Source: Minisyncoccota bacterium (lineage in GTDB: Bacteria > Patescibacteriota > Minisyncoccia > Phycocordibacterales > VMEP01). Taken from it: DNA of 64,000 nt. How positions within the stretch are numbered: position 1 is the first letter of the stretch; each line of letters starts with the position of its first letter. The notes under the pieces are model-generated. The model was given only the letters and a program-made list of their open reading frames with translations, had not been told where the DNA came from and did no database searches. Made by a program: the position numbers and the translations under genes. The DNA lies in the NCBI GenBank assembly GCA_041659085.1, contig JBAZYZ010000001.1:4884-68883 (forward strand). Reading direction: 5' to 3'. Shown here one piece after another: positions 42,240 through 62,198 of this stretch.

Positions 42240-43348
42240 AAGTTTTAATGATTTCAACCGACAGGAAAATATTGGAAGAAGGAAGCGCTGTTCGGGCGCG
42301 TATGGTTTTATATGGGACGATTTGTGATGAACTTCATATAATTCTGGCTTCTGTCGGCGGTAGAAAAGAGACAGCATCAATCTCCGGAAATGTTTTTGTG
42401 CATCCTACGGCCTCTCTATGCGCCGCGTTTTCCAGACTGTCTTTATTTTTGTCATCAAACCTTATTTCTGCGGATCTGGTTACCGCGCAGGATCCTTTTG
42501 AGACCGGTTTTGCCGCTTGGTACATGTCAAAAAGGGTTGGTGCCAGGCTCGAGATTCAAATCCATACCGATTTTTTGAGCCCGTATTTTGGGCGGGGATC
42601 ATTTATAAATAAAATCCGCGTTTTAATCGCAGGAATTGTTTTGCCCAGAGCTGACGGAATTCGTGTCGTATCTGAACGTATCGCGAATTCACTCGGTACT
42701 TTGCGCTTGTTACCGGGCGCCAATATTACGGTTCTCCCCATTTACGTTGATATTGAAAAAATCAGGAATTCCCAAGTGATTTCCGATTTGCGCAAAAAAT
42801 ACCCGCAGTTTGATTTTATGATACTGATGACCTCACGCCTCACGAAAGAAAAAAACATTAGTCTGGCCATTGAGGCAATGCGCGAGATCATAAATAGGCA
42901 TCCCAAGGCCGGGCTTGTTATAGTCGGTTCAGGCCCTGAAGAAGTGGAACTTAAGCTGCTTGCTAAAAAATACAATCTGCAACCCAGTATTGTTTTTGAG
43001 TCATGGTCTGATGATGTCATCTCATATATGAAAACCGCGGACTGTTTTCTGTTAACTTCAAATTATGAAGGGTTCGGGCTCTCTCTTGTTGAAGCAGCCG
43101 CATCCGATTGCCCCATTATTTCAACGGAGGTGGGTATCATTGGCGAGCTTTTGCGTCCCGAGGAGGATATCTTGGCTTGCCCGGTTGGCGACGCCGGCTG
43201 TATCTTGGACAGGTTGGAACGCCTTATGAATTCTCCCGGTCTCGCCCACCAACTTTCTTTAAAAGCCCAATCTTCGTTTAAGCCACTTATAATGAGCAAG
43301 GAGGATTATTTAAAGAAGTTACGCACGGCTTGGGAAAAGTGTTTTTAG
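42236..43348 (+). CDS. glycosyltransferase family 4
   Basis: ATGA overlap with the upstream stop; 'SNYEGFGLSLVEAAASDCPIISTEVGIIGELL'. Confidence 0.75.
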   Translation: MKVLMISTDRKILEEGSAVRARMVLYGTICDELHIILASVGGRKETASISGNVFVHPTASLCAAFSRLSLFLSSNLISADLVTAQDPFETGFAAWYMSKRVGARLEIQIHTDFLSPYFGRGSFINKIRVLIAGIVLPRADGIRVVSERIANSLGTLRLLPGANITVLPIYVDIEKIRNSQVISDLRKKYPQFDFMILMTSRLTKEKNISLAIEAMREIINRHPKAGLVIVGSGPEEVELKLLAKKYNLQPSIVFESWSDDVISYMKTADCFLLTSNYEGFGLSLVEAAASDCPIISTEVGIIGELLRPEEDILACPVGDAGCILDRLERLMNSPGLAHQLSLKAQSSFKPLIMSKEDYLKKLRTAWEKCF

Positions 43349-43392
43349 TTTGTTATACTACCCGGGCTTATAAGGGTTTGTTTAGATGCTAT

Positions 43393-44403
43393 ATGCCAAA
43401 AACCGCAAAAAAATACAAAAAGATTTTAGTGACAGGGACGGCCGGTTTTATCGGATTTCACCTTGCCAAGGAGCTGCTTAGAGACAAGGACTGCGAGGTT
43501 GTTGGCATCGACAGCATAACCGACTATTACGATGTCCGTATGAAGCAAAAACGTAATGAGGTTTTGAAAAAATACTCCAATTACACATTCTATAAAGTTA
43601 ACCTGGCTGATTATAAAAAACTTGAAAATATAATCAAAAAAGAGAAGCCGGAGGCTATAATCCATCTGGCGGCCCAGGCAGGAGTCAGGTATTCTCTTAC
43701 CAACCCGTGGGCTTACGAACAGTCAAACTATTTAGGGACACTCAATATTTTTGAGGCATCGAAAAATTTCGGCATCAAACGTGTGCTGTTTGCTTCCTCA
43801 AGTTCGGTTTACGGTTCCAACAAAAAAGTTCCATTTAGTGAGAAAGACATAGTTGACCACCCTATTTCAATTTATGCCGCATCCAAAAAGGCCAACGAAG
43901 TTCTTGCCCATTCATACCACCATCTTTACGGCACAGAAACTGCCGGCATGAGATTCTTTACAGTCTATGGCGAATATGGCCGGCCGGACTTGGCTCTTTT
44001 CAAGTTCACTAAAAATATTCTGCTTGATAAGCCTATTGATGTCTATAACGGCGGCAAGATGATGAGGGACTTTACGTATGTTGACGATATTGTTGCCGGG
44101 ATTATCGGGATACTGAACAAGAGGGATTTAAAGTACGAGATTTACAATTTGGGAGGCGACAACCCCGTGTCTCTTATGGGGTTCATAAGACTGATTGAAA
44201 AATTTTTGGGAAAGAAAGCTAAAATCAATTTTATGCCGCTTCAGCCGGGGGATGTGACAAAAACGATGGCGGATATATCAAAAGCCAAAAAAGAAATAGG
44301 ATTTGAACCAAAAACGCGGATAGAGGATGGTACCGAGAAATTCATCCGCTGGTTTCTGGAGAATAAGAACTGGCTTCTTAAGCTGGAAGACCCCAAGCAG
44401 TAG
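43393..44403 (+). CDS. NAD-dependent epimerase/dehydratase (UDP-glucuronate/UDP-sugar 4-epimerase-like)
   Basis: 'ILVTGTAGFIGFHLAKELL'; 'YAASKKANE' Y-x3-K; extended SDR length. Confidence 0.75.
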   Translation: MPKTAKKYKKILVTGTAGFIGFHLAKELLRDKDCEVVGIDSITDYYDVRMKQKRNEVLKKYSNYTFYKVNLADYKKLENIIKKEKPEAIIHLAAQAGVRYSLTNPWAYEQSNYLGTLNIFEASKNFGIKRVLFASSSSVYGSNKKVPFSEKDIVDHPISIYAASKKANEVLAHSYHHLYGTETAGMRFFTVYGEYGRPDLALFKFTKNILLDKPIDVYNGGKMMRDFTYVDDIVAGIIGILNKRDLKYEIYNLGGDNPVSLMGFIRLIEKFLGKKAKINFMPLQPGDVTKTMADISKAKKEIGFEPKTRIEDGTEKFIRWFLENKNWLLKLEDPKQ

Positions 44404-44461: not shown

Positions 44462-45304
44462 ATGGATAAAAATAAAAAAATTGGTTTTATCGGTCAGGGA
44501 TATATAGGCAAAAACTACGCCGACGATTTTGAGAAACGCGGCTATTCGGTTGTGCGCTATGCTTTAGAAGAACCTCATATTTCAAACAAAGAGAAGATCG
44601 CGGAATGTGACATTGTGTTTATCGCCGTGCCGACCCCGACAACTCCGGAAGGATTTGACGACCATATCGTTGACGAGGCCATTAATCTTGTTGGCGCTGG
44701 CAAAATTGCCGTGATTAAGTCCACGGTTCTTCCGGGCACTACGGAGAAACTTCAAAGGGCGCATAGCGGTGTCTTGGTATTAAATTCGCCGGAATTTCTT
44801 TCGGAAGCGACAGCGGCGCATGATGCGGCTCATCCGGCGCAAAATATTATCGGCATTCCCGAGGACACGGCCGGGCATCGCGAAGCCGCGGAGCTTGTCT
44901 TGTCTATTTTGCCGGAAACACAGAGTTCGCTCGTGTGTAAAAGCGCCGAATCCGAGCTTTTCAAGTACGCGCATAACATGAGCGGCTATGTGCAGATTGT
45001 GCTGTTTAATATTATTTATGATTTGGCGCAAAAATTAGGCTGTGACTGGGAGCCTATTCAGAAAGCGATTGAAGCGGACCCGCTTATTTCCAACCGATAC
45101 GCGCGGCCGATTCACAAAAGCGGAAGGGGCGCAGGAGGTCACTGTTTTATAAAAGATTTTGAAGCTTTTTCGAGCCTTTATCACAGCAAGATTGCTGACC
45201 CGCTCGGGGACAAGGTAATGGCCGCTTTGAGGGAGAAAAATATTGATTTGCTGAAAAAGAGCGGCAAAGATTTGGATTTATTGAAAGGAGTTTATGGCAA
45301 TTAG
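44462..45304 (+). CDS. UDP-glucose/GDP-mannose dehydrogenase family protein (short form, 280 aa)
   Basis: N-terminal 'KIGFIGQGYIGKNYA' Rossmann motif; 'GRGAGGHCFIKDFEAF' resembling the UGDH catalytic Cys motif GFGGSCFPKD. Confidence 0.55.
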   Translation: MDKNKKIGFIGQGYIGKNYADDFEKRGYSVVRYALEEPHISNKEKIAECDIVFIAVPTPTTPEGFDDHIVDEAINLVGAGKIAVIKSTVLPGTTEKLQRAHSGVLVLNSPEFLSEATAAHDAAHPAQNIIGIPEDTAGHREAAELVLSILPETQSSLVCKSAESELFKYAHNMSGYVQIVLFNIIYDLAQKLGCDWEPIQKAIEADPLISNRYARPIHKSGRGAGGHCFIKDFEAFSSLYHSKIADPLGDKVMAALREKNIDLLKKSGKDLDLLKGVYGN

Positions 45305-48845: not shown

Positions 48846-48877
48846 ATTTAAAAATAAAAATCAAAAATTTTTTTCTT

Positions 48878-49258
48878 ATGCTCATGAGCTGGTATTTTCT
48901 GAAAAGTGTAATTTCAGGAGGAACCACGGCTCTTGTTGACCTATCTCTATTGTTTGTTTTTCGGGAGATACTACACGTGTCTTATTGGTTATCAGTCAAC
49001 ACTTCTTTTGCCGTTGCCATCGCAGTTAATTTTTCCCTTCAGAAATTCTGGACCTTTTCCAATAAAGATTTAGATTCTGCGCACAAACAATTTATTAAGT
49101 TTTTTCTGTTGGCGATGGGGAATATGGCTATGAATAGTTTGCTTATGTATGTGTTGTCAATCGTGTTTGGCCTTTGGTATCTCGGGGCGCAAGTTATTAC
49201 AATAGGTACGTTGGCAATAGTAAATTTTGTCTTGTACAGGAATTTTGTTTTCAAATAG
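48878..49258 (+). CDS. GtrA-family membrane protein (polyprenyl-P-sugar translocation)
   Basis: 126 aa; 4 TM helices; 'ISGGTTALVDLSLLFVF...VNFSLQKFWTFS' GtrA-like signature; immediately upstream of the GtrB/ArnC-like GT2. Confidence 0.7.
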   Translation: MLMSWYFLKSVISGGTTALVDLSLLFVFREILHVSYWLSVNTSFAVAIAVNFSLQKFWTFSNKDLDSAHKQFIKFFLLAMGNMAMNSLLMYVLSIVFGLWYLGAQVITIGTLAIVNFVLYRNFVFK

Positions 49259-49321
49259 ACATTTCCTCCGCTCCTATTTTTAGTTTTTGCCGTATTTCTC
49301 CGCTTCTGATAGAATTCTGCC

Positions 49322-50263
49322 ATGAAGCTATCGGTCATTATCCCCGTCTATAATGAAGAAGAGAACATAAAAAAGCTACACAGGGAGCTTGTTTCTGTCA
49401 TGGGTGACATCAAACTTTCTTATGAGATTATTTGGGTCAACGACGGTTCCAAAGACGCTAGTCTGGCGGTGCTTGAGGAAATAGCAAAGATTGATGCGAA
49501 TTCAAAGATTATAGATTTTGCGCGAAATTTCGGACAGACTGCCGCAATGTCGGCCGGTATTAAGCAGGCGACGGGAGACATTATTATACCGATGGACGCC
49601 GATTTGCAGAATGACCCGGTTGATATTCCTAAGTTTTTAAAAAAGATTGAAGAGGGCTACGACGTAGTTTCTGGCTGGCGCAAGAATCGCAAGGACGCCC
49701 TTCTCTTAAGAAAGGTTCCTTCATGGATTGCAAATTCAATTATCGCCGCCATTACCGGTGTGCGTATTCATGATTACGGATGTTCAATGAAAGCTTATAG
49801 GCGAGATATTATCCAGGGAATTATTCTTTATGGAGAGATGCATCGTTTTATTCCGGCATACGTGGGTTGGCATGGAGGCAAGGTGACCGAGATTGTGGTC
49901 AATCATCGCCCGCGTATTCACGGAGAGACTAAGTACGGAATTTCGCGTACCTTCCGCGTAATTCTTGACCTCATTTTAATAAAATTCCTTTCAAAGTATA
50001 TGAATCGCCCCATTCATTTTTTTGGGGGGATAGGTTTTATGTCTCTGGCTCTTGGCGGGATAGCCGCTATCGCCGCGGTTTACCTGAAGTTGTTTAATTC
50101 GATATCCTTTATCACGACTCCGTTGCCTATCTTTTCGGCAATGCTGGTGATCGTCGGCGTGCAGCTTATTGCCATGGGCGTTATAGCGGAAATGCTTATG
50201 CGCGTCTACTATGAGTCGCAGGGGAAACAGCCTTATTCCATTAAGAAGACCATGAACACCTAA
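49322..50263 (+). CDS. GT2 polyprenyl-phosphate glycosyltransferase (ArnC/GtrB/DPM1-like)
   Basis: 'LSVIIPVYNEEENI', 'WVNDGSKD', 'IIPMDADLQNDP' DxD; two C-terminal TM helices. Confidence 0.85.
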   Translation: MKLSVIIPVYNEEENIKKLHRELVSVMGDIKLSYEIIWVNDGSKDASLAVLEEIAKIDANSKIIDFARNFGQTAAMSAGIKQATGDIIIPMDADLQNDPVDIPKFLKKIEEGYDVVSGWRKNRKDALLLRKVPSWIANSIIAAITGVRIHDYGCSMKAYRRDIIQGIILYGEMHRFIPAYVGWHGGKVTEIVVNHRPRIHGETKYGISRTFRVILDLILIKFLSKYMNRPIHFFGGIGFMSLALGGIAAIAAVYLKLFNSISFITTPLPIFSAMLVIVGVQLIAMGVIAEMLMRVYYESQGKQPYSIKKTMNT

Positions 50264-50267
50264 AGGT

Positions 50268-52157
50268 ATGTGCGGTATAGCGGGATATTCAGGGGAGGGG
50301 GATACTCTTATTCTAAAGAAAATGGCGGATACGCTGCGCCATCGTGGGCCTGATGATGAGGGATACTACTCTGATGGACGCGTGGGGTTGGCTCACAGGC
50401 GTCTTTCCATTATAGATTTAAGCCCCGCCGGACATCAGCCGATGACGGTGGAAAAAGGAGATATCCAGGTTGTTTTCAATGGGGAGATTTATAATTTTGG
50501 GGATTTAAGGAAGGGCCTTGAGTCTCGACATAAGTTTACGGGCCATTCAGATACTGAAGTCATAGCTCATCTGTACGAAGAAACCGGCGAAAAAGTCTTT
50601 TCAAAAATAGACGGGATGTTCGCGATTGCCATTTATGACAAAACCCGCAGTAAACTTTTTTTGGCGCGAGACCGCATGGGCAAGAAGCCGCTTTATTACG
50701 GAATATTTGACGGTACCCTGATCTTTGGATCCGAATTGAAAGCTCTGATGGTTCATCCGAAATTTGAAAAAGAGCTTGATATAGTTTCCTTAAACAAATA
50801 TCTCCAATACGAATACATACCGACACCCCATACCATGTTTAAAAATGTCTGGAAGCTTGAGCCTGGACACTATGCTTCGTATGACGGCACAGTACTTACT
50901 AAGACTAAATTTTGGGAGATATCTTTCGTGGGGAAAGAAATAGAAGCTCCTTCGCTTAAGGATTCACTCGAGCGTCTGGACACGCTGCTTTATAATGCCG
51001 TGAAAAAACGCATGGTAAGCGATGTTCCGCTTGGCATTTTTCTGAGCGGCGGGATTGATTCAAGCACCATCGCTTATTACGCGCAAAGAATAGCCCGCGA
51101 AAACGGAGCAAAACCGGTTAAAACATTTTCCATAGGCTTCAGCGAAGGCAGTTTTGACGAATCCGCTTATGCTCGTCAGGTATCAAAATATTTGGGTACC
51201 GAGCACGAGGAGAAGATTCTAAGCGCCAAGGATTCACTCTCACTTATACCGGACATAGCGGATTTTCTGGACGAGCCCCTTGCCGACGCGTCTATTATTC
51301 CGACTTATTTGCTCTCGCGCTTTACGCGTGAACACGTGACGGTTGCTTTAGGCGGCGACGGGGGAGACGAGCTCTTGTGCGGTTACGATACGTTTCTTGC
51401 TCACAGGCTTGCGGATATTTACGAAAAAATTCCCGAGTTTATGCGAAAGGATATTTTTGAAAAACTGATTCCGCTTCTGCCGGTTTCGCAAAGAAATATG
51501 AGCTTTGATTTCAAGGCAAAGAAATTTATCGCCGGTTTTTACGGTGATAAAAAATATCGCAATCAGAGATGGCTGGGTGCTTTTGATAAGTCAGAGCGCG
51601 CAGAGCTTTTTTCGAGTGAGGTTTGGAGAGGGCTTGAGGGGGCTAATGAGTTTGATGACATAGATCGCTACTTGGCGGAATGTCCGAGCGATGATTACTA
51701 TAACCAGCTTATGTTTATGTATCTCCGCACCTATATGATGGACGATATTTTAGTGAAGGTTGACCGGGCCAGTATGTACAACTCTCTTGAGGTGCGCGCG
51801 CCGTTTCTGGACACGGAGGTTGTTAATTTTCTCGTCAAACAACCCCTGTCATTTAAGTTGCGCGGTCTTACTACCAAGTATCTTCTGAAGCAACTCATGG
51901 AAGATAAGTTACCTAGTGAAATAGTGTATCGCAATAAAAAAGGTTTTGGGATACCGCTTACAGAGTGGCTCAAAGGGGAGTTGAAACCTCTTGTTAAAGA
52001 GACATTAAGCGAGGAAAGCATTAAAAATCAAGGTTTGTTTAATATGGAGTATATTGATAAGCTTAAAAAAGAACACTTCTCCGGCCAGAAGGACAACAGG
52101 AAACAGTTATGGGCGCTCATGGTTTTCTCCTTATGGCACAAAAAGTGGATGGAATAA
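50268..52157 (+). CDS. asparagine synthetase B-family glutamine amidotransferase (possible sugar-uronate amidotransferase, WbpS-like)
   Basis: N-terminal 'MCGIAGY' Ntn nucleophile; 'SGGIDSS' PP-loop. Confidence 0.85.
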   Translation: MCGIAGYSGEGDTLILKKMADTLRHRGPDDEGYYSDGRVGLAHRRLSIIDLSPAGHQPMTVEKGDIQVVFNGEIYNFGDLRKGLESRHKFTGHSDTEVIAHLYEETGEKVFSKIDGMFAIAIYDKTRSKLFLARDRMGKKPLYYGIFDGTLIFGSELKALMVHPKFEKELDIVSLNKYLQYEYIPTPHTMFKNVWKLEPGHYASYDGTVLTKTKFWEISFVGKEIEAPSLKDSLERLDTLLYNAVKKRMVSDVPLGIFLSGGIDSSTIAYYAQRIARENGAKPVKTFSIGFSEGSFDESAYARQVSKYLGTEHEEKILSAKDSLSLIPDIADFLDEPLADASIIPTYLLSRFTREHVTVALGGDGGDELLCGYDTFLAHRLADIYEKIPEFMRKDIFEKLIPLLPVSQRNMSFDFKAKKFIAGFYGDKKYRNQRWLGAFDKSERAELFSSEVWRGLEGANEFDDIDRYLAECPSDDYYNQLMFMYLRTYMMDDILVKVDRASMYNSLEVRAPFLDTEVVNFLVKQPLSFKLRGLTTKYLLKQLMEDKLPSEIVYRNKKGFGIPLTEWLKGELKPLVKETLSEESIKNQGLFNMEYIDKLKKEHFSGQKDNRKQLWALMVFSLWHKKWME

Positions 52158-52168
52158 TTACGAACATT

Positions 52169-52741
52169 ATGAAAGAAAATATGAAAAAATTGAATCTCGG
52201 ATGCGGAGTTTCCAGAAAAGAAGGGTACGTAAATATTGATTGGCAAAAAGAGACCAATCCTGACGTTGTGCATAATTTGAATGTTTTCCCCTATCCTTTT
52301 CCTGACGATTTTTTTGATTCCATTGAGGCCTCTCATATACTTGAACATTTAAACAGTCCGTTTGATGTTATGAGGGAGTTGCGCAGGATTTTAAAAAAGG
52401 GAGGATCTTTGTATATTAAAGTTCCTCATTTCAGCCGCGGATTTACTCACGCGGAGCACACCCACGGATTTGATGTTACTTTTCCTCTTTATTTCAACAA
52501 AAATTTTACCAAATCGGGATTTTTCGGTGTCGAATTTGATTTAGACATGATGAAACTCCACTGGCTGGCGTTTTTCCATCTGATGCCGTATATGGGCTAT
52601 GGCAGTACCACTATATTTATATTGAGGATAATGAATTCCGTCGTCTCTTTTTTTGCGAATCTTTCCCCGGCCTTTGCGAGCAGAATTTGGTGCTTTTGGG
52701 TCGGCGGTTTTGATGAGGTGGAATTCTGGTTCCATAAGTAA
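52169..52741 (+). CDS. class I SAM-dependent methyltransferase (type 11-like)
   Basis: 'KLNLGCGVSRKEGYVNID'; 'GGSLYIKVPH'. Confidence 0.65.
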   Translation: MKENMKKLNLGCGVSRKEGYVNIDWQKETNPDVVHNLNVFPYPFPDDFFDSIEASHILEHLNSPFDVMRELRRILKKGGSLYIKVPHFSRGFTHAEHTHGFDVTFPLYFNKNFTKSGFFGVEFDLDMMKLHWLAFFHLMPYMGYGSTTIFILRIMNSVVSFFANLSPAFASRIWCFWVGGFDEVEFWFHK

Positions 52742-52750
52742 AATATCCCC

Positions 52751-54727
52751 ATGGTTTTTATTGCTGTAAAACTATTTCTGTTTTTATTTGCAGTCATTTC
52801 TTTTGGCTATTTGGCGAGTTTTCTTTTTTTGAAAGAAAGAAAAATTTCCACCCTTATTCCGTTCTCTGTCCTTATCGGCGTAAGCGGATATGTATTTTTC
52901 GTCAACACATTTTCTTATTTTGTCGGAGTTAAGGAGGTTGTGTGGCTGGTATTACTACTATTTGTACTGTTTATTTTTTATCAAATTTACGCAAAGGGGA
53001 TAGGGGGATTTCGTCCGGAAATTGATTTAACAGGGAAAGAGTCTAAAATTCTTTTTAGTCTGGCAATAATAATTTCAATAACATCGGGGATTGTCGCCTT
53101 AAGAGCCCTTGACCCGGACGGATACGTTCATTTGACATTTTCCTCAACTATAAGTGAAGGGAATTTCCCTCTTATGAATCCGGTAGATCCAGACACGCTT
53201 ATTCCGTATCACTACGCGCCGGATTTGCTTTCTGCCGCGATGCATAGAGTAACCGGCGTCTCGCTATTGTGGGGTTACAATATTCAGACTTTCTTCTTTA
53301 GCGGCCTGACTTTTTTACTCGCTTTTATTTTGGCTTTTTATGTGACCGGAAGATTTTACACTTCAATAATTGCGTCTTTGTTTTTCTTCTTTGGAGCGGG
53401 GGCTCTTTTTTTGAATATTACACACGGATTTTCTCCCCTCTATCACAAGTATATTTTGGGTGAAAACGCAGTTGGCGCATGGAAATTTGTGGCCGAGATG
53501 CTTTGGCCTAAGATAAATAATTTTTATACTTATGCAATTAGAAATTACACAACGGTTATGGGCACGCCGATAATGCTTTCTGTCATATACTTATATTTTA
53601 AATTCATTGATGAAGGCAAAACTCAAATCAAAAAAATAATTATTGCAGGACTCCTTCTCGGTTTTTTGGCATTAAGCCTGGAAACAAATTTTGTTATACT
53701 GTCGTTCGTTTTAGGGCTATCCCTGCTCTATAAAATCTATTTGTTGTCTTGCAATAAGAACGATGATTTGAGAGAAAGGTATCTCAATGGCGTAAAAGTA
53801 ATAGTCCTTGTTTTGTTCATAGGTTCGGCAGTTGCGTATATGCAGGGAGGGGTTATAACCGCTTCTTTGAAGAGCGATAAAGGTGTCGTTGCCGGCCAAA
53901 GCTCCGGAGTTGGTGGGCGGCAGAGTTTTGTCTTGAATGGCAACCCTTCAGAACTTATAATTTCGCGTCAGGGAGAAGACAAGGTTCCAATATTTAGTTT
54001 GACCTTTTTAAAAGAATTCGGCCTTACTCTTATTTTGTTTCCGTTGGCAGTTTTTGTTTTCAGGAGAGATAAAAAAATATTATTTTTATCGTCAGTCGGC
54101 CTGACAGCTTTTTTGATTCCAATTTTCGTTATCTACGCTTCTTGGCCAGGGGAATTGGCCAGGGTATTTGTTGTATCTACTACAATTTTTTCTTTTGTTT
54201 CCGCTCTTTTTATCTGTCTTCTCTACGGTAAGTATAAAGAAAACATAAAAATTAAATCTATTTTGATTACCATCTCTTTGATGGTAATATTTGGTGGACT
54301 TTCTTTCCAATTAGTTTCTATGGTTACCCCGTACAGTAATTTTGGCAAGATTAGAGTTCCTTTTGCGGCGAGTCTTCCCGCGCTTTCTGATACTGACAGC
54401 AGGGTTTATGAATGGGTACGCGCCAATACAGTCAATTCATCCAGGTTTTTCCCCTACAATCAAAGATTAATAATTGAGACGGGCAGAATGTCTCCAAGCG
54501 ATATCGTTGGATTTGTCCCGAAGTATAAAATTCCGATTTACAAAGATATTGCTGATAATTGCGGGACAGATTCAATAAAGAAACTGGGAATAAATTATTT
54601 TGTCTTGTCTCCGGGCGGTTTTTCCAAGGAAAGTTTTCTAGGCAAATGTTCCTCACTTAATTCCGGTTTAGTTTTTAGCGTTAAGGAGGGCGGGGATTAT
54701 CGGGAGATTTACCAGATAAAGAATTAA
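52751..54727 (+). CDS. large polytopic membrane protein (~13 TM plus extracytoplasmic C-terminal domain); candidate GT-C-type glycosyltransferase/polymerase
   Basis: 658 aa; many hydrophobic helices; soluble C-terminal ~130 aa; no firm family motif identified. Confidence 0.6.
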   Translation: MVFIAVKLFLFLFAVISFGYLASFLFLKERKISTLIPFSVLIGVSGYVFFVNTFSYFVGVKEVVWLVLLLFVLFIFYQIYAKGIGGFRPEIDLTGKESKILFSLAIIISITSGIVALRALDPDGYVHLTFSSTISEGNFPLMNPVDPDTLIPYHYAPDLLSAAMHRVTGVSLLWGYNIQTFFFSGLTFLLAFILAFYVTGRFYTSIIASLFFFFGAGALFLNITHGFSPLYHKYILGENAVGAWKFVAEMLWPKINNFYTYAIRNYTTVMGTPIMLSVIYLYFKFIDEGKTQIKKIIIAGLLLGFLALSLETNFVILSFVLGLSLLYKIYLLSCNKNDDLRERYLNGVKVIVLVLFIGSAVAYMQGGVITASLKSDKGVVAGQSSGVGGRQSFVLNGNPSELIISRQGEDKVPIFSLTFLKEFGLTLILFPLAVFVFRRDKKILFLSSVGLTAFLIPIFVIYASWPGELARVFVVSTTIFSFVSALFICLLYGKYKENIKIKSILITISLMVIFGGLSFQLVSMVTPYSNFGKIRVPFAASLPALSDTDSRVYEWVRANTVNSSRFFPYNQRLIIETGRMSPSDIVGFVPKYKIPIYKDIADNCGTDSIKKLGINYFVLSPGGFSKESFLGKCSSLNSGLVFSVKEGGDYREIYQIKN

Positions 54728-54736
54728 GTAATTGCT

Positions 54737-55576
54737 ATGAATAGCTCTAATGAAATAGTCCAGGACAAAAAAACGGCTGACGCCTTCGCCAACTCGTGGA
54801 ACAATTTACCGTCAGGTTCTATTTATACGGAAGATCAGTTTACCGACTGGATGATGCCCTTGGAAAGGAAAGACATTGAGGGTAAAAGAGTATTGGAGCT
54901 CGGTTGTGGTAATGGGAGCCTGATGTCTCATATGGTCAGTTGGAATCCCTCATACCTTGAAGGAGTTGATTTGGGGGATTCGGTCTTGTCCGCGGAAAGT
55001 AATTTGAGGAAAACAAATTATAAGAATTGGAAAGTTACTAAAGGTGACCTCACTGAATATAGAAGCGCGGGATTTGATGTAGTCTATTGCATCGGAGTTA
55101 TCCATCATCTGAAAGTCCCTGAGAAAGGTTTTGAGTCGGTTATTAAAAATACAAAAAGGGGAGGACGGTTTCATGTGTGGGTATATGCCAGAGAGGGGAA
55201 TAGCATTATTGTTTATTTTGTGGACCCAATCAGAAAGGTTGTGTCCCATCTGCCATGGTGGTTTACGAAATATTTTGTCGCAACCCCTCTCGTTGTTCCT
55301 TATTACTTATACGCTAAGTTCCTGTCGCTGTTTAAAAGGAATTCGTTGTTGGAGAAATTACCTCTTTACGAATACAGTCTGTGGATATCAAAGAGAGAAT
55401 TCGCTTTTTTTAGGCATGTCGCCTTTGACCAGCTTGTTACTCCGCAGACCGCTTATATAAAGAAAGAGGTAATAGAGAGTTGGCTCAATTCATGTTCGGG
55501 AATAGATAAGACAAGCACGTATATAATTATGAGAAATGGCAATTCATGGAAATTCGGTGGCAGAGTAAAAATATGA
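54737..55576 (+). CDS. class I SAM-dependent methyltransferase
   Basis: 'RVLELGCGNGSL' motif I; 'FDVVYCIGVIHHL'. Confidence 0.7.
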   Translation: MNSSNEIVQDKKTADAFANSWNNLPSGSIYTEDQFTDWMMPLERKDIEGKRVLELGCGNGSLMSHMVSWNPSYLEGVDLGDSVLSAESNLRKTNYKNWKVTKGDLTEYRSAGFDVVYCIGVIHHLKVPEKGFESVIKNTKRGGRFHVWVYAREGNSIIVYFVDPIRKVVSHLPWWFTKYFVATPLVVPYYLYAKFLSLFKRNSLLEKLPLYEYSLWISKREFAFFRHVAFDQLVTPQTAYIKKEVIESWLNSCSGIDKTSTYIIMRNGNSWKFGGRVKI

Positions 55577-56721
55577 AAATTTTACTTATAAATTATGAAT
55601 TTCCTCCGCTTGGAGGCGGCGCAGGTAATGCAACAAAAAATATTGCGCGGGAGATGTCTTCCCTAGGCCATTCCGTGTTTGTAATCTCAACTTGGTTCAG
55701 TGGATTACCGGAAGAAGAAGTGACAGATGGTTATACGATATTAAGAGTTCATTCCTTAAGAAAGAAAGAGGACAGGTCAAATATTTTTGAGATGTTTGAT
55801 TTTGTCCGGAAAGTTATCGGAGAGAAGGATAAATTCGTCAAAAATTTTAAGCCAGACGTAATTATATCCTTTTTTGCCATACCAACCGGAATCATCGCAT
55901 ACTATTTTAAAAAGAAGTATGGCATACCATATATTTTATCTTTGCGTGGAGGGGATGTTCCCGGTTTTTTACCCATAAATTTAAGGTATTACCATACTAT
56001 ATCTTATCCGATTACCAATTTAATTTGGGAAAATTCCTCCGGTATTGTTGCAAACAGTAAAGGATTGCAAAAATTGGCGGAGAAAACGTCGTTAAGGTTT
56101 AATAAAAAAGTGGAGTATATCTCAAATGGAGTTAATACTGAGGAATTCTTTCCGGATTTGAATAAAAAAGATCCAGAAACACTTAATGTTATTTTTGTCG
56201 GACGCCTGACGGAGCAGAAGGGAGTCATATTTTTGATCAAGGCCATCGAGCGGCTTATAAAGGAAGATAAAAGCCTGAGAGGGGTTTTAAAATGTGATAT
56301 CATTGGAGACGGTCCGCTGAGAAAAAGCCTTGAAATTGAAGCAGAGAATAGGGATTTACAGGATAACATTAAGTTTTACGGCTGGATTCATCGGGAAGAA
56401 TTGTTGTTTTATTATCAAAAAGCCGATGTTTTTGTTCTGCCTTCATATGATGAAGGGATGCCCAATGTGATACTGGAGGCAATTGCTTCCGGGTTGGCTA
56501 TTATCGCCACAGATATTGCCGGCAACGAGGAGTTGGTTTCAGACGGCGTAAACGGCTTTCTTTATAAGGAGCAATCTGATTTACAAGGTTTGATTGATAA
56601 ATTCATAAAGAATCATGGTTTAAAGCATCAATTCGGAGCCTCTTCTCTTGAAAAGGCTCGGGAGTTTTCTTGGAAGTCAGTATCTGAAAAGTACATAGAT
56701 ATATGTCAAAAAATAAAATAG
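55573..56721 (+). CDS. glycosyltransferase family 4
   Basis: ATGA overlap; 'MKILLINYEFPPLGGGAGNA'; 'PSYDEGMPNVILEAIASGLAIIATDIAGNEELVSDGVNGFL'. Confidence 0.8.
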   Translation: MKILLINYEFPPLGGGAGNATKNIAREMSSLGHSVFVISTWFSGLPEEEVTDGYTILRVHSLRKKEDRSNIFEMFDFVRKVIGEKDKFVKNFKPDVIISFFAIPTGIIAYYFKKKYGIPYILSLRGGDVPGFLPINLRYYHTISYPITNLIWENSSGIVANSKGLQKLAEKTSLRFNKKVEYISNGVNTEEFFPDLNKKDPETLNVIFVGRLTEQKGVIFLIKAIERLIKEDKSLRGVLKCDIIGDGPLRKSLEIEAENRDLQDNIKFYGWIHREELLFYYQKADVFVLPSYDEGMPNVILEAIASGLAIIATDIAGNEELVSDGVNGFLYKEQSDLQGLIDKFIKNHGLKHQFGASSLEKAREFSWKSVSEKYIDICQKIK

Positions 56722-57449
56722 ACAATAAAAAAATCTATGATGACAATTGGGCAGATTGGGTTGATATGAAAATTTATGGTCCGGCCAGCCGCTGGCTACG
56801 CGGGCTAATAGGAGAACATCTCTGTTTGATTAATACGGAAAATATAAGTTCCGTTTTGGATGTCGGGTCGGGAGAGGGGACCATTACATATTACATAGCT
56901 AAGCATTTTCCGGAAGCTGAGGTGACTGGCATAGATTTTTCCCAGTCTGGCATCAATTGTGCCTCCGAAGCTTATAATTTGCCGAATCTAGATTTTATCC
57001 AAGATGAAGACTCCACTCATCTGAAAAATAAATATGATTTAGTCGCAGCTTACGAAGTTTTAGAGCATGTTGAGGACTGGGAAGGTTTGTTGGGGAGGAT
57101 GGCAGACGCGTCGAATAAATATATAATGCTGTCGTTTCCGGTTGGAAGAATGAGGTCGTTTGAGAAGATAGTAGGTCATTTGAGAAACTTTAAAAAAGGA
57201 GAAGTGGAGAATTTTTTGAGCGGAAAAGGTTTCAGGCCGGTTAATATTTTTTATGCGGGATTCCCATTCTATAACCCTGTTTACAGAGAGCTTTGTAATT
57301 TGACAAACTCCGCCGGGAATTCGTTTACCAAGGGTAAATACGGCTGGGGTCAGAAAATAACTGCATCTGTTTTTTATTTTTTATTCAGGTATTGTTCAAC
57401 GAAATATTTTTTAGGCAACCAGTTTTGCGGCTTATTTGAGCGTATATGA
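56703..57449 (+). CDS. class I SAM-dependent methyltransferase
   Basis: 'VLDVGSGEGTITYYIA' motif I; 'YDLVAAYEVLEHVED'. Confidence 0.7.
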   Translation: MSKNKIDNKKIYDDNWADWVDMKIYGPASRWLRGLIGEHLCLINTENISSVLDVGSGEGTITYYIAKHFPEAEVTGIDFSQSGINCASEAYNLPNLDFIQDEDSTHLKNKYDLVAAYEVLEHVEDWEGLLGRMADASNKYIMLSFPVGRMRSFEKIVGHLRNFKKGEVENFLSGKGFRPVNIFYAGFPFYNPVYRELCNLTNSAGNSFTKGKYGWGQKITASVFYFLFRYCSTKYFLGNQFCGLFERI

Positions 57450-58321
57450 CAATAACACCGGAGATCTACAAACGTGTTCTGGATATTTACGGCAATTATT
57501 ATGAGCCCATTACTGGCATATTACCCCAGAAGTTAACAGACGACGTTCTCTCTTTTAAAAAACCAATCGAGCAGATTGCTGTCATAGAAAGATATTCGGG
57601 CTCCATTAAAGGTAAGAAATTATTGGAGGTCGGATCAGGCTTTGGAATATTTGTTGTTACCGCAAGGCAGAACGGTATTGAGGCTTACGGTGTAGAGCCC
57701 GATTCCGAGGGATTTAACGGATCATATGAATTATCCCAGGAGATACTCAGTTTGAACGAAATTGACCCAGGGGTGATAACAAGCGGTATCGGAGAGGCGT
57801 TACCGCTCCCGGACCATTCGTTTGACGTCGTTTACTCAACAAATGTCCTAGAGCATGTCTCAAACCCGAGAGCTTTTTTGGGAGAGGCTATTCGCGTCTG
57901 TAAACCCGGGGGGTTTATACAAATTGTTGTCCCTAACTATGGTTCGTTTTATGACGGACATTATTCATGTTTCTACGTTCCTTATCAGCCCAAATGGTTG
58001 TGGAAAATATTTATTAAGTTATTCCACAAAAAAGACATCTCGTATATTGATACCCTGCGCACGGAAATAAATTATTTCGCGATGCTAAAATGGCTGAAGC
58101 CGTACGTAAGGAGCGGGGCAGTATCTATTTTAGGTATGGGCGAAGATATTTTTAGAGAGAGGATGGATAGTGTAGATTTTTCCGCTTGGGCCGGGCTGGA
58201 AAAAGTAAAAAACTGGCTAGCTCTTGTCCATAAGTTCAGGATTACAGAATTAGTAATATGGTTGCTCTTGGCTACAAAATCGTACTCTCCCTTGATTGTT
58301 ACTATCCGCAAGAATAAATAG
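57446..58321 (+). CDS. class I SAM-dependent methyltransferase
   Basis: 'LLEVGSGFGIFVV'; 'FDVVYSTNVLEHV'; 'GGFIQIVVPN'. Confidence 0.7.
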   Translation: MTITPEIYKRVLDIYGNYYEPITGILPQKLTDDVLSFKKPIEQIAVIERYSGSIKGKKLLEVGSGFGIFVVTARQNGIEAYGVEPDSEGFNGSYELSQEILSLNEIDPGVITSGIGEALPLPDHSFDVVYSTNVLEHVSNPRAFLGEAIRVCKPGGFIQIVVPNYGSFYDGHYSCFYVPYQPKWLWKIFIKLFHKKDISYIDTLRTEINYFAMLKWLKPYVRSGAVSILGMGEDIFRERMDSVDFSAWAGLEKVKNWLALVHKFRITELVIWLLLATKSYSPLIVTIRKNK

Positions 58322-58335: not shown

Positions 58336-59298
58336 ATGGATAAAAATATTAAATGGCAAAAGACAGGCAAGATTCTTAAGATTTTATTTTCACTTTTTCT
58401 GTTTGTGTGCGTCATCCTCGTCTTAAAGATAAATCTGCCCTCCGTACTTGTCTTCATAAAGAATATTCCGGTTGTTTATATTTTTTCAGCGCTGTTGGTT
58501 TATTTGCTCGCCGTTTTTGTGGCATCAATTAAATGGAGGTTGTTCCTCCCCAATTATTCAATAAGGCGAATTCTAAGATATACATTTGTCGGACAATTCT
58601 ACTCTGTTATTTTACCCGGGCAGTTTGTTGGGGAGGCGGCTAAGGCCTATCGCCTTGGGGCCGTGAACAAAAATTTGGAAGAGGTTGGCGCGTCCGTCTT
58701 ATTGGATAAGGCCACAGGTATATTGGGCATACTTATCGTCGCTTTTGTAGGAATTGTCTTTACTGGATCGTTTCTTCCTCCAGCCTTGCTCTATATTATC
58801 TTGTTCGGATTAATTATATGTGTATTGGTTTTGTTATTGCTCCGCAGGGAAGAAGTATATGTGTTTGTACACCGAAAGATATTGTCAGCAGAAGACAGAC
58901 ATCTTGCGCTGAATAGTTTTTTGCGTTTCATTCGTATTTTTGTTGAACATTGGCACGAATATTCAAGAAGGACAGGCAGACTATTGCTTAGCGTATTTGC
59001 CGGGGTAATATACCAGCTCTTGATAGTTGCTTTAATTGCCATTCTGGCTTCAGGGTTAAATATTTATCTTTCGTTTTTTGACTGGTCGTGGATATTCGGC
59101 ATTGTGTCTGTCTCAGTTTTCATTCCGGTTACAATAGGGGGAATAGGCTTGAGAGAGGGGGTGTTTGTTGGTCTTCTGTCCCTGCTTCATGTGTCGCCGG
59201 AATTGGCGGTATCGCTCTCCCTAGCTTCCTTTGCTTTTCAACTACTGGGGGCTTTGATTGGCGGAACATTTGAGGCGATGGAGTTAAAAAACCGTTAG
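58336..59298 (+). CDS. flippase-like membrane protein (UPF0104/YbhN/MprF-N-terminal-like)
   Basis: 8 TM helices; 'RILRYTFVGQFYSVILPGQFVGEAAKAYRLG' typical of lysylphosphatidylglycerol-synthase-TM-region-like proteins. Confidence 0.65.
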   Translation: MDKNIKWQKTGKILKILFSLFLFVCVILVLKINLPSVLVFIKNIPVVYIFSALLVYLLAVFVASIKWRLFLPNYSIRRILRYTFVGQFYSVILPGQFVGEAAKAYRLGAVNKNLEEVGASVLLDKATGILGILIVAFVGIVFTGSFLPPALLYIILFGLIICVLVLLLLRREEVYVFVHRKILSAEDRHLALNSFLRFIRIFVEHWHEYSRRTGRLLLSVFAGVIYQLLIVALIAILASGLNIYLSFFDWSWIFGIVSVSVFIPVTIGGIGLREGVFVGLLSLLHVSPELAVSLSLASFAFQLLGALIGGTFEAMELKNR

Positions 59299-59313: not shown

Positions 59314-61041
59314 ATGGAGAAAATTACCAAAATAATTCAGGAATACCGCTTTGTTTTGCTTCTAGCCGTTTTTTGTGGCGCTGTCTATGTGGCACCCCAT
59401 TTGTTTTTTAAGATTACCCTTGGGAACTCCTTCCACGGCATTGAACTTACACCAAGGGATGCGGAGACACATTACCTGTCAATGCTGAATGAGGTCAAAC
59501 AGGGATACCTTACCCATAGCAGCACATATTTGTATGAATATAAGGATAGTAAAGTGTCCCCGATTGAATATTCCGAGACATTTTACGGGACGATAATAAA
59601 ACTTTTCAATCTTGGAGCTCCTGGATTTTATTTATTTTGCGAGTTCTTTTTTCCGGTAGTTATATTTTTACTTTGGTATTATTTTTCCTTGCTTGTTACC
59701 AAAAACAAAAGGAGCGCTATTTTGTCAGCTCTTTTTTTAATGTTCGGTACCTACATTTTAAGCAACGTAAGCATCATAAAACAATTTGATATTTTATTTT
59801 GGAAGACGGCAAACATACCTCTCCTTGCCTACGGCAGAATTATAAATCCATTACTTACATTCCCATTCTTTTTTGCCGGTCTAATCTTCGCTTATAAGCT
59901 GTTCTCTGAGAACACAAAAAAAATGGCGGTCTTTTCCGGCATAGCTCTGGGAATAATGTTTTATGTCTATTTTTACTTTTGGACATATTTTTTAGCCCTG
60001 AGTTTTTTAATGCTGGTGTTCGGAGTGTCGAAAAAAGAGTGGCAATTGGTGAAAAATATTTCTCTAAGTATTTCTATATCTCTGCTCATTGGTTCATATT
60101 TTATTGTCAGTATGATAAAGACGGTCGTTAGTTCAGTTGGGGTTCAATCCGGAGGCTCATTATCTCCATATGTTTTTGCCTTAAGCCATAATCCGTCCCT
60201 GCCGTCCTTGGTGGTTTTGGGAGTGGCGTTATTTTCTTTTTTTATTTATTTGAGGAGGAGAAAGGGGATACCATTGGAGAGAGGGGATGCATTCATCTTT
60301 CTCCTGTTATCTACTGCCGTAGTTGTTGTTAATCAGCAGATAATAACTGGACGGTCTGTTGAACCGGGACACTTTCATTGGTATGCGAATGTGCCGGTTT
60401 TCTTTTTAACTGTAAGTTATATCATTGTCGACTTGTTGGGAAAAATAAGAATAAGATATCTTGGCAAAACGTTATTTATAATTTTATGTTTATATCTAAT
60501 CACGTTTGGCATAGGTACACAGGTTTCCGGATATAAACAGAGGTTTGATAATTTTTCTTATATTCAGAAATACGGAGCTGTCTTCGACTGGTTCAATAGG
60601 AATACGGAAAAAGAATCGGTTATTTTTGGCGGAAACGGATTTTCGGATCTCACTCCTGCATATACCCAAAATAATGTCTATTTTGCAGCTTACGGGGCTT
60701 ACTACCCGTCTAATCCGCTCGAACGCAGAATTCATACCGCATACATTTATTATTTCTTGGATAATAAAAAGGAGGACATTTTGCAAAAGATTTATCCATC
60801 CTTAACTTCAAATGGCTGTGTCAGCGCCGGATGTGTTGATTCTGACATTTTTGCAAAAACTATGGCTAATTATGGAGAATTTTTAAAGACGCCATTTTAT
60901 GAAAATTTGAAAAAATATAGGGTAGACTATATGGTCTGGGACAAAAACACGAACCCTTCATGGAATTTGGATAAGTTTAGTTTCTTAAAACCAGTCTATA
61001 ATTATGATAATGTTCTGGTTTATAAAATTTTAAACAAATGA
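59314..61041 (+). CDS. large polytopic membrane protein with extracytoplasmic C-terminal domain; candidate GT-C glycosyltransferase/polymerase
   Basis: 575 aa; ~11 TM helices then ~170-aa soluble domain; no firm family motif. Confidence 0.55.
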   Translation: MEKITKIIQEYRFVLLLAVFCGAVYVAPHLFFKITLGNSFHGIELTPRDAETHYLSMLNEVKQGYLTHSSTYLYEYKDSKVSPIEYSETFYGTIIKLFNLGAPGFYLFCEFFFPVVIFLLWYYFSLLVTKNKRSAILSALFLMFGTYILSNVSIIKQFDILFWKTANIPLLAYGRIINPLLTFPFFFAGLIFAYKLFSENTKKMAVFSGIALGIMFYVYFYFWTYFLALSFLMLVFGVSKKEWQLVKNISLSISISLLIGSYFIVSMIKTVVSSVGVQSGGSLSPYVFALSHNPSLPSLVVLGVALFSFFIYLRRRKGIPLERGDAFIFLLLSTAVVVVNQQIITGRSVEPGHFHWYANVPVFFLTVSYIIVDLLGKIRIRYLGKTLFIILCLYLITFGIGTQVSGYKQRFDNFSYIQKYGAVFDWFNRNTEKESVIFGGNGFSDLTPAYTQNNVYFAAYGAYYPSNPLERRIHTAYIYYFLDNKKEDILQKIYPSLTSNGCVSAGCVDSDIFAKTMANYGEFLKTPFYENLKKYRVDYMVWDKNTNPSWNLDKFSFLKPVYNYDNVLVYKILNK

Positions 61042-62198
61042 TCGGCAAGCTCAATAACATTTATATCCTGATCCTCTGTTTCATCTACGCGATTTTTCGC
61101 GGGAAGGCGACACGCAAGGCGGTGAATCCGCGGAAGATTCTTATTCTCCAGATGGCAAAACTTGGGGATATGGTTTGCACTACACCCATGTTCCGGGCGG
61201 TAAAAGAAAAATATCCTAAGGCGAAACTGTATGTGGTCGGTAATTCAATCAATAAAGAAATTCTTCTTGGGAACAACGATGTGGACGAGTATATAGTATG
61301 GAACAAAAATAACTTTTGGGAATTGGTTAAGCGTTTACGCGGGGGAAAAATAGATTTCGCCTGTCAGACGGGGCCAATCTTTGATTTTCTGGCCATGTTT
61401 TATCTGGCCGGCATTCCATCCATAGCTACTCCGAAAATAGAAAATGGTTACTGTCCGTGGGAAACTAAGGCCTATAAACTCTTGCGACGATTCGCGACAC
61501 TTATACCGCACAGGATGGGTTCATATGCCCCGAGGGAATATTTACGCCTCCTTGAGCCCATAGACATATATACTGACAATACGACAAAGTATCTGGCCTT
61601 TTCCAAAGAAGCCGGAAAAAGGGTTGAAGATATTTTTATTGAGAACGGAGTCGGGAAAGAAGAGTTTTTGTTTTGTATTTCTCCCGCTGCCGGAAATAAG
61701 ATAAAGCAATGGCCGGCTGGGAGATTTGCGAAAGTGGCAGACCATATTTATGGAAAATACGAGACGAAAATATTTATCATTGGCGCCAAGAATGATCGGA
61801 CCGAGGTTCTTGAGATGGTTTATAACTTGAATAAGGAAACAAAAGTGATAAACCTTTTGGATAAATTAAGCCTAGAAGAGCTGAAGGCTCTTATGTCAAG
61901 AATGAATATGTTCGTAAGCGTTGATACCGGCCCGATTTATATTGCTGAAGCTTTTGGCATACCGACGGTTGATATAACAGGCCCCATAGACGAGAATGAA
62001 CAGCCGCCGATTAGCAAGCTAAACCGAATTGTTAATATAAAAAACAGGAAAAAGCCGGAGCTTTATGTAATGAATGCGAGAGTATATGATGAGGCTGAGG
62101 CGAGAAGGCAGACAGAGGAAATAACGATGGAAATGGTCACAGATGAAATTGATGATTTATACGGTCATATAAAGAAAAATGATAAAAAAATTAATTAA
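61038..62198 (+). CDS. glycosyltransferase family 9 (ADP-heptose:LPS heptosyltransferase-like)
   Basis: 'KILILQMAKLGDMVCTTPMFRAVKEKYPKAKLYVVG' GT9 N-terminal signature; '...CISPAAGNKIKQWPAGRFA...'. Confidence 0.7.
   Translation: MIGKLNNIYILILCFIYAIFRGKATRKAVNPRKILILQMAKLGDMVCTTPMFRAVKEKYPKAKLYVVGNSINKEILLGNNDVDEYIVWNKNNFWELVKRLRGGKIDFACQTGPIFDFLAMFYLAGIPSIATPKIENGYCPWETKAYKLLRRFATLIPHRMGSYAPREYLRLLEPIDIYTDNTTKYLAFSKEAGKRVEDIFIENGVGKEEFLFCISPAAGNKIKQWPAGRFAKVADHIYGKYETKIFIIGAKNDRTEVLEMVYNLNKETKVINLLDKLSLEELKALMSRMNMFVSVDTGPIYIAEAFGIPTVDITGPIDENEQPPISKLNRIVNIKNRKKPELYVMNARVYDEAEARRQTEEITMEMVTDEIDDLYGHIKKNDKKIN

Follow-up and report, generated by a model that had tools for sequence, protein, structure and literature searches.

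A putative polyprenyl-phosphate-sugar glycosylation pathway with an undescribed GT-C-fold transferase family in a surface-glycan operon of a Patescibacterium

Three-component glycosylation systems, in which a sugar is loaded onto polyprenyl phosphate inside the cell, flipped and transferred outside, are well documented; they include the GtrA/GtrB/GtrC systems of Shigella and Salmonella phages and the lactococcal CsdC/CsdD/CflA system, and follow the concept of Mann & Whitfield (PMC11127046, PMC10821137). A five-gene module with the same three parts encoded together, and with the same predicted logic, was found in a 64,000-nt stretch of Candidatus Paceibacterota DNA (Patescibacteria, candidate phyla radiation or CPR). 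This whole stretch is hereafter called the window, and coordinates are window positions on the + strand. The module differs from the described Gtr systems in having a conserved AsnB-family amidotransferase and a methyltransferase inside it, and in that its predicted GT-C-fold glycosyltransferase, the 658-aa protein P658, belongs to an undescribed sequence family with three extra N-terminal transmembrane (TM) helices. It also differs in its setting, a Patescibacterium host and an operon, ≥25 kb long, that contains a second predicted GT-C gene and a second flippase-like gene.

The enzyme structurally closest to P658 is AftA, the mycobacterial galactan 5-O-arabinofuranosyltransferase (GT85, PDB 8IF8). 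However, identity between the two was 9% in the structural alignment, and no sequence-level match was obtained even with a profile of the P658 family. The extra TM helices number two in AftA, whose N-terminus is inside, and three in P658, whose N-terminus is predicted to be outside; the AftA donor is made via the phosphoribosyl pyrophosphate (PRPP)/decaprenylphosphoryl-5-phosphoribose (DPPR) route, whereas the donor pathway of P658 would here be the family-2 glycosyltransferase (GT2) of the module. The closest characterized relative of this GT2 is ArnC of the Arn pathway (ArnA/B/C/D/E/F/T), which acts on lipid A with 4-amino-4-deoxy-L-arabinose (L-Ara4N). The genes of the module are as follows.

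48878..49258, + strand: GtrA-family small membrane protein, 126 aa, four TM helices (PF04138)
49322..50263, + strand: ArnC/GtrB-type GT2, 313 aa (PF00535, 6.6e-35)
50268..52157, + strand: glutamine-dependent AsnB-family amidotransferase of the WbpS/WbqG (eps_aminotran_1) type, 629 aa (PF00733)
52169..52741, + strand: class-I S-adenosylmethionine (SAM)-dependent methyltransferase, ~190 aa (Methyltransf_11)
52751..54727, + strand: P658, predicted GT-C-fold glycosyltransferase of an unannotated family, 658 aa (AlphaFold2 model, Foldseek)

All five open reading frames (ORFs) of the initial annotation (GtrA, a GT2 with a DxD motif and TM helices, AsnB, a methyltransferase and a 658-aa protein) were found in that order and at the coordinates it had assigned, and their domain E-values were far outside the range expected by chance. 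The genes are co-directional and separated by 63, 4, 11, and 9 nt, a packing that fits an operon. The module is real but not free-standing, being the middle part of a larger operon that also encodes a flippase-like protein and P575, a second predicted GT-C enzyme of 575 aa, both of which had been missed. In GenBank, the neighbors of the 658-aa gene are labeled as glycosyltransferase family 2 and asparagine synthase.

We propose that this region of a surface-glycan operon encodes the central enzymes of a glycosylation pathway that uses polyprenyl-phosphate-linked sugar. At the cytoplasmic face of the membrane, the GT2 would load polyprenyl phosphate with a sugar taken from a nucleotide sugar. 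The WbpS-like AsnB, and possibly the adjoining methyltransferase, would modify the sugar, the likeliest change being that of a uronic acid to a uronamide; because these enzymes need ATP and glutamine or SAM, they would act in the cytoplasm, before export. The lipid-linked sugar would be flipped, here putatively by GtrA, and P658 would hand it on, outside the membrane, to an acceptor that may be a glycan, a protein or a lipid. The catalytic base would be the invariant D123, which stands at the beginning of the first long outer-loop helix. For the core of this reading (loading of polyprenyl phosphate by the GT2, export of the lipid-linked sugar and transfer outside by P658) we estimate a probability of roughly 0.75–0.8. 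P658 probably works with the neighboring GT2.

The GT2 carries a D92-A-D94 motif and two C-terminal hydrophobic helices at ~231–295, and aligned over its full length to the structures of ArnC (9hwj, 5e-54) and GtrB (5ekp, 1.5e-45). Its best NCBIfam models were ArnC (6e-64, 216 bits with a cutoff of 529) and PgfS (1e-54), with both scores under the equivalog cutoffs. The enzyme is thus predicted to be a polyprenyl-phosphate sugar synthase. The small membrane protein matched PF04138 (GtrA_DPMS_TM) with an E-value of 3.4e-22 over profile positions 3–117 of 117, and GenBank has the same start for it (MFA5841391.1, ‘GtrA family protein’). Its family and gene position make it a candidate flippase for the polyprenyl-phosphate-linked sugar.

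P658 is labeled ‘hypothetical protein WC835_00300’ in GenBank (MFA5841395.1) and had no match in Pfam (E ≤ 1), NCBIfam or the sequences in the PDB, the last searched with phmmer and also with a family profile. Its AlphaFold2 model, built with 16 family members as input, had a mean predicted local distance difference test score (pLDDT) of 85.6 and a predicted template modeling score (pTM) of 0.87. GT-C enzymes were the only significant structural matches of this model by two independent methods. All nine Foldseek matches at E ≤ 1e-3 were GT-C enzymes, the best TM-scores being those against AftA (0.52/0.55). On the strength of the model, P658 is almost certainly a GT-C enzyme. The initial annotation, which had offered GT-C for the 658-aa protein against a transporter or permease fold and had assigned the two smaller proteins to GtrA and GtrB/ArnC, was borne out on all three.

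The model has ~14 TM helices and an extracytoplasmic alpha/beta C-terminal domain of 133 residues (526–658). The short loops on the cytoplasm side all contain K or R (KERK, GR, GKTQ, NKN, FRRD, YKEN) and the short outer loops do not, which, by the positive-inside rule applied to the helix boundaries of the model, indicates a topology with the N-terminus out, ~14 TM helices and the C-terminus out. The first long outer loop (119–171) is the candidate catalytic loop and contains D123, H127, E136-G-N-F-P140, and Y153-H154-Y155; the second (365–416) is opened by G366 and G367. D123 follows TM4 at the start of the loop helix 122–135, on an outside loop by the same rule. It was invariant in 16 close sequences and in 33 sequences at 17–30% identity. 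H154 was invariant in the latter 33, among which G19, G43, P140, Y153, and G366 were conserved to at least 90%. R471, near the outer end of TM13, was 88% conserved.

The first long extracellular loop of AftA carries the catalytic Asp128 and comes after two TM helices additional to the GT-C core; the lipid phosphate is contacted by an Arg (PMC10265970). The placement of D123, H154, P140, Y153, and G366 on outside loops of P658 mirrors that of AftA D128 (PMC10265970). By analogy, D123 is a candidate catalytic base and R471 a candidate phosphate ligand.

The family of P658 is sizeable: when 1.84 billion cluster representatives were searched exhaustively with its profile, 1,185 fell at E ≤ 1e-3, of which 157 reached E ≤ 1e-30. 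Its taxonomic labels were mostly patescibacterial (Saccharibacteria, Minisyncoccia, Nealsonbacteria, Peregrinibacteria, and Magasanikbacteria) and included one Woesearchaeota archaeon; Chloroflexota proteins were similar over the catalytic loop only, and had no Pfam match either. Membership of described families was considered and rejected. The WWDYG motif of oligosaccharyltransferases (STT3/PglB/AglB, GT66) was missing from the C-terminal domain. The ArnT/PMT families (GT83/GT39) gave no PF02366 or PF13231 match and no sequence match to ArnT or PMT structures in the PDB, and P658 did not fall within the AftA family (GT85) by sequence. DUF2298 (PF10060) was the sole Pfam family with any signal, consisting of weak matches in 5 of 16 close and 2 of 33 distant members (best 1.9e-6); the window protein itself had no match to it at E ≤ 1 and was not assigned to it. 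No functional account of DUF2298 was found in the literature, and a literature search for GT-C enzymes in Patescibacteria likewise returned nothing.

The second predicted GT-C enzyme of the operon and the flippase-like gene immediately upstream of it are located as follows.

58336..59298, + strand: flippase-like polytopic protein (LPG_synthase_TM/TIGR00374), second flippase candidate (PF03706, 9.6e-34)
59314..61041, + strand: P575, predicted second GT-C-fold glycosyltransferase, 575 aa, unannotated (remote paralog of P658)

The flippase-like protein passed the cutoff of TIGR00374, ‘flippase-like domain-containing protein’ (52.7 bits, cutoff 43.2), and the pair, an LPG_synthase_TM gene followed by one for an unannotated protein of ~590 aa, recurred in one related locus (L004). 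In a profile–profile comparison, the P658 and P575 families aligned over 369 columns with a probability of 97.4% (E 9e-12). P575 has the canonical layout, in which TM1 is followed by a long catalytic loop with D49-A-E-x-H-Y; the alignment pairs D123 of P658 with D49 of P575 and TM4 of P658 with TM1 of P575. By this alignment, P658 has the GT-C core in its canonical form, with three further conserved TM helices on its N-terminal side. In the proposed pathway, P575 would draw on the same pool of lipid donor and act at another site.

The amidotransferase matched PF00733 (1e-100) and the GATase_6/7 class-II glutaminase domains, starts with MCGIAG, and retains the glutaminase nucleophile Cys2. Its best full-length match was TIGR03108, eps_aminotran_1 (7.9e-181, 603 bits, under the 817-bit cutoff), with residues 1–622 aligned to positions 1–623 of 628; it passed the cutoff of the generic TIGR01536 model (500.7 bits, cutoff 267.1). 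Among eps_aminotran_1 members, WbpS and WbqG are needed for uronamides to be formed in O antigens, and deletion of PGN_1234 from P. gingivalis leaves a linking sugar without its glucuronamide form (PMC7468200, PMC6025236). AsnB of the window shares with these proteins its length class (629 aa for a 628-position model), the full-length alignment and Cys2, and a surface-glycan cluster with nucleotide-sugar dehydrogenase- and epimerase-like enzymes. The best-supported guess, judged from family resemblance, is that it most likely converts a carboxylate to a carboxamide, i.e., a uronic acid to a uronamide. The dehydrogenase-like and epimerase-like enzymes of the operon (43330–45304) could supply this uronic acid. 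WbpS was proposed to act on a UDP-sugar (PMC6025236). In contrast to window AsnB, direct adjacency to a polyprenyl-phosphate-sugar synthase and a GT-C enzyme has not been described for WbpS.

The adjoining methyltransferase matched Methyltransf_11 (6.2e-10, 40 bits, cutoff 21.2) and has the motif I sequence LNLGCG. Its ORF is open from 52109, and its first 49 nt overlap asnB. Because the ortholog in the related locus L007 is 198 aa long, translation likely starts at the ATG at 52169 rather than at 52109. Further orthologs were found in L008 and L010, with identities of 66% (L007), 63% (L008), and 49% (L010).

A word-indexed search of 5.8 billion proteins yielded 18 relatives of P658. Eighteen loci with full-length P658 relatives (24–59% identity) were collected and searched with the window proteins. 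A full-length ArnC/GtrB-type GT2 was present near the P658 homolog in 10 of the 18 loci and AsnB in 8, seven of them at ≥48% identity; several of the loci lacking a GT2 were truncated contigs. AsnB directly followed the GT2 in the window, L001, L004, L007, and L008, and in these five the order GT2, AsnB, (methyltransferase), P658, or an adjacent permutation of it, was kept from 59% down to 35% identity. A P575-like paralog was found near the P658 homolog in seven loci, often in tandem (L012, L013, L016, L018). GtrA orthologs lay directly upstream of the GT2 in L007 (63% identity) and L008 (60%). The public gene call at 6085–6522 of L007 is a 145-aa minus-strand ORF; the plus strand at 6134–6511 encodes the GtrA ortholog, and the call is probably a strand mis-call.

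Other features of these loci were also recorded. L010, L012, and L020 belong to Saccharibacteria. A GT9 gene was near the P658 homolog in 7 of the 18 (L007, L008, L010, L015, L017, L018, L020); GT9 is the heptosyltransferase family, and these Patescibacteria are not expected to make lipopolysaccharide. L016, on a contig labeled Candidatus Woesearchaeota (JAGVYE010000028.1, 233–5064), has an ArnC-type GT2 (42% identity) with P575-like and P658-like genes in tandem, so that either the module is shared across domains between ultra-small bacteria and archaea or the contig was binned in error. In L002 (Magasanikbacteria), the GT2 that overlaps the P658 homolog was not counted: its identity to the window GT2 was 27% over the first 104 residues only, and its best PDB matches were 5tze and 5tz8 (‘Glycosyl transferase’), not ArnC or GtrB, which marks it as a different type of GT2. 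The same locus (5220–6802) encodes a deacetylase, a formyltransferase, and a PMT-family protein. L006 (Peribacteraceae, 5356–15569) encodes a DegT-GT2 fusion of 667 aa, a hexapeptide acyltransferase, a polysaccharide deacetylase, and a formyltransferase. In these two lineages, the donor could be an amino sugar.

Several observations weigh against the proposed pathway. GtrA was found near the P658 homolog in only 4 of the 18 loci. The three-component Gtr-like architecture put forward in the initial annotation therefore held in the window lineage but not for the P658 family at large, and the co-occurrence it had suggested as a check linked the family to the GT2 and to AsnB. L015 and L017 had no ArnC-type GT2 within 10 kb of the P658 homolog, and L002 had a GT2 of another type. 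An initiating phosphoglycosyl transferase was found in none of the seven Pfam-annotated related loci and, by Pfam annotation, nowhere in the operon. The equivalence of D123 with the catalytic Asp of AftA rests on position and conservation, and AsnB and the GT2 both scored below NCBIfam equivalog cutoffs. Finally, the presence of AsnB did not cleanly track that of a nearby UDP-sugar dehydrogenase across the loci, and for this reason the uronamide assignment is one of family resemblance only.

Beyond its core, the form of the pathway that we favor is a single-sugar, Gtr-like decoration of a separately assembled glycan, possibly begun by a WbaP/PglC-type phosphoglycosyl transferase encoded elsewhere in the window. 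We consider the odds of this complete version to be about even. It is favored because GtrA lies directly upstream of the GT2, because such is the usual role of ArnC/GtrB-type enzymes, and because a separate WbaP-type initiator is present in the window. The gene in question (16258–17604; PF02397, 2e-52), with an epimerase adjoining it (to 18784), lies ~21 kb upstream of the operon and may initiate the main glycan.

A different arrangement, which we regard as possible but clearly less probable, would have the GT2 start the whole glycan of the operon on polyprenyl monophosphate, in the manner of the Wps and Agl systems. The six GT4 enzymes and the GT9 would elongate it in the cytoplasm, AsnB would amidate and the methyltransferases methylate it, a Wzx-type or flippase-like protein would flip it, and P658 and P575 would polymerize it, pass it as a whole to protein or the cell wall, or do both. 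The glycosylation of Haloferax, from AglJ to AglB, works along such lines. The missing initiator fits a GT2 acting as primer rather than as side-branch donor synthase, and the absence of GtrA from 14 of the 18 loci and the presence of Wzx (Polysacc_synt) in L001, L002, L005, and L007 point the same way. So do the two GT-C paralogs, often in tandem, for one polyprenyl-phosphate-sugar synthase, and the models of P658 and P575, which scored strongly against oligosaccharyltransferases and whose C-terminal domains matched that of AglB. That AsnB and the methyltransferases need a cytoplasmic lipid- or nucleotide-linked substrate agrees with this arrangement and equally with the single-sugar one. A precedent is the lactococcal WpsA/B-WpsG-WpsH/J system, in which GT2-primed oligosaccharides on undecaprenyl phosphate are handled by GT-C enzymes (PMC10821137). 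On the other hand, GtrA-family proteins go with monosaccharide carriers, and GtrA directly precedes the GT2 in the window, L007, and L008. Donors made by ArnC/GtrB-type enzymes mostly carry a single sugar, the WbaP/PglC-type gene makes a conventional diphosphate-linked route available, and P658 lacks the WWDYG motif.

It is unlikely that the genes merely share an operon and serve no dedicated pathway, with the donor of P658 coming from elsewhere, the product of the GT2 going only to P575 or another enzyme, or AsnB amidating a nucleotide sugar for a GT4. Proximity by itself is weak evidence in small CPR genomes, where glycan genes cluster, and WbpS was proposed to work at the level of the UDP-sugar (PMC6025236). 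The three loci noted above as lacking an ArnC-type GT2 also speak for such loose association, as do other GT-C genes (PMT_2) in several related loci, which could be the true partners of the GT2. Against it stands the adjacency of GT2, AsnB, (methyltransferase), and P658 down to 35% identity. A GT-C enzyme, moreover, needs a lipid-linked donor, for which the GT2 is the sole synthase in the operon, and P658 and P575 are the only GT-C enzymes there that could use its product. A transporter, permease or Wzy/WaaL-type function for P658 could be suggested by its polytopic nature and its lack of Pfam and NCBIfam matches, but is very improbable, since Foldseek listed transporters (MFS and others) solely at probabilities ≤0.2 and TM-scores ≤0.14, no WaaL, Wzy or SEDS structure was among the top matches, and the protein has a conserved acidic loop motif and an extracytoplasmic alpha/beta domain of a type common to AftA, ArnT, PglB, and AglB.

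The operon runs on the + strand from 38859 past the window end (64000), its frames overlapping or abutting all along, and besides the module it encodes six GT4, one GT9, at least nine methyltransferases, the flippase-like protein, and P575. The first part contains, in order, a UDP-glucuronate decarboxylase of the ArnA C-terminal type, three GT4, an epimerase/dehydratase, and a short nucleotide-sugar dehydrogenase; a GT4, two methyltransferases, and another GT4 lead up to the module. After it come a methyltransferase, a GT4, two methyltransferases, the flippase-like protein, P575, the GT9, a TylF-type methyltransferase, and a methyltransferase. A further methyltransferase and a GT4 lie past the window end (contig L033), where the operon continues. 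Scans for consensus promoters and terminators over 36000–64000 stayed at chance level and gave no sub-operon boundaries. The genes referred to here are as follows.

38859..39911, + strand: UDP-glucuronate decarboxylase, ArnA C-terminal-domain type, first operon gene (NF008872)
43330..44403, + strand: NAD-dependent sugar epimerase/dehydratase (PF16363, PF01370)
44462..45304, + strand: short nucleotide-sugar dehydrogenase, 280 aa, without C-terminal UDP-binding domain (TIGR03026, below cutoff)
54737..55576, + strand: methyltransferase (Pfam)
55546..56721, + strand: GT4 (Pfam)
56703..57449, + strand: methyltransferase (Pfam)
57446..58321, + strand: methyltransferase (Pfam)
61038..62198, + strand: GT9, heptosyltransferase-like glycosyltransferase (PF01075, 6.9e-23)
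62179..62874, + strand: TylF-type O-methyltransferase (PF05711, 1.1e-22)
62853..63773, + strand: methyltransferase (Methyltransf_23, 5.7e-22)

The decarboxylase passed the cutoff of NF008872, bifunctional UDP-4-keto-pentose/UDP-xylose synthase (5.8e-186, 617.5 bits, cutoff 294), and aligned to ArnA positions 316–647 with 491 bits, under the cutoff of the ArnA model. By homology it is a possible supplier of a pentose donor, and the pentose may belong to the glycan. The epimerase/dehydratase matched the model of TviC-type UDP-N-acetylglucosaminuronic acid (UDP-GlcNAcA) 4-epimerases below its cutoff (2.6e-35). The dehydrogenase matched the nucleoside diphosphate (NDP)-sugar dehydrogenase model TIGR03026 with 1.4e-37 and 129.5 bits (cutoff 189.8); it has an ortholog, likewise of 280 aa, in L007 (2369–3211, 60% identity) and may be a shortened or re-purposed enzyme. 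The genes at 54737–58321, between the two predicted GT-C genes, are spaced by −31 to +14 nt and are predicted to encode cytoplasmic elongation and modification enzymes. At least nine class-I SAM methyltransferases are encoded in 46300–63773 (starting at 46300, 47032, 52169, 54737, 56703, 57446, 62179 (TylF-type), 62853, and others), a richness that implies a heavily methylated glycan.

An Arn-pathway reading was considered on account of the ArnC-like GT2, the ArnA-like decarboxylase at the start of the operon, and the formyltransferase, deacetylase, and DegT-GT2 genes in the distant P658 loci L002 and L006, and was rejected. Unlike the Arn pathway, the window operon (38859–63773) encodes no aminotransferase, formyltransferase or ArnD-type deformylase, P658 has no PMT or PMT_2 match, and the decarboxylase is not conserved beside the P658 family in other loci. 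As a Patescibacterium, the organism presumably has no lipid A. ArnD is nevertheless a precedent for modification of a sugar between lipid loading and transfer.

Elsewhere in the window, the ribosomal RNA genes are unlinked and in an odd order, with the 23S, several tRNAs and the 5S followed ~10 kb downstream by the 16S (8716–12368, 12858–12963, 22115–23652). The 23S match spans 3,653 nt for a 2,925-position model, corresponding to ~700 nt of insertions; no ORF of ≥105 aa, and hence no obvious homing endonuclease, was found inside the match. Unlinked and expanded rRNA genes agree with a CPR origin of the DNA. A 1,047-aa ORF at 294–3437 had no Pfam match. At 34146–37491, a gene for a TraG/VirD4-like coupling ATPase is followed by one for a protein that looks secreted and has lamin-tail and PKD domains; these products may have surface or DNA-uptake functions typical of CPR.

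Patescibacteria make up a large share of bacterial diversity and live attached to host cells; their surface glycans are, to our knowledge, almost wholly uncharacterized. The logic of a lipid-linked donor and a GT-C transferase is already established, and a specialist would find the present result useful rather than surprising. What is new is a sizeable unannotated family, modeled as GT-C and extended by three conserved N-terminal helices, together with another unannotated GT-C family, related to it, in the same operon; a conserved amidotransferase, here together with a methyltransferase, inside the module; and a distribution centered on Patescibacteria. The P658 family, whose ~1,185 cluster representatives are publicly ‘hypothetical’, gains a fold and a probable role, and a conserved GT2-AsnB-GT-C unit is defined that is directly testable. 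In its most far-reaching form, which we regard as a long shot, P658 and P575 would represent two related undescribed GT-C families, largely of Patescibacteria and with at least one DPANN archaeal locus, serving a GT2-AsnB-(methyltransferase)-GT-C unit in which the sugar is modified on the lipid and then flipped. The paralogs might form a heteromeric pair, for which Pmt1-Pmt2 and EmbA-EmbB are precedents. The WbpS-like AsnB would then turn a polyprenyl-phosphate-linked uronic acid into a neutral uronamide, perhaps subsequently methylated, before export, as a carboxamide analogue of the deformylation by ArnD and the epimerization by DprE1/E2 of lipid-linked sugars. If AsnB does act on the lipid-linked sugar, this would constitute a new type of on-carrier sugar modification.

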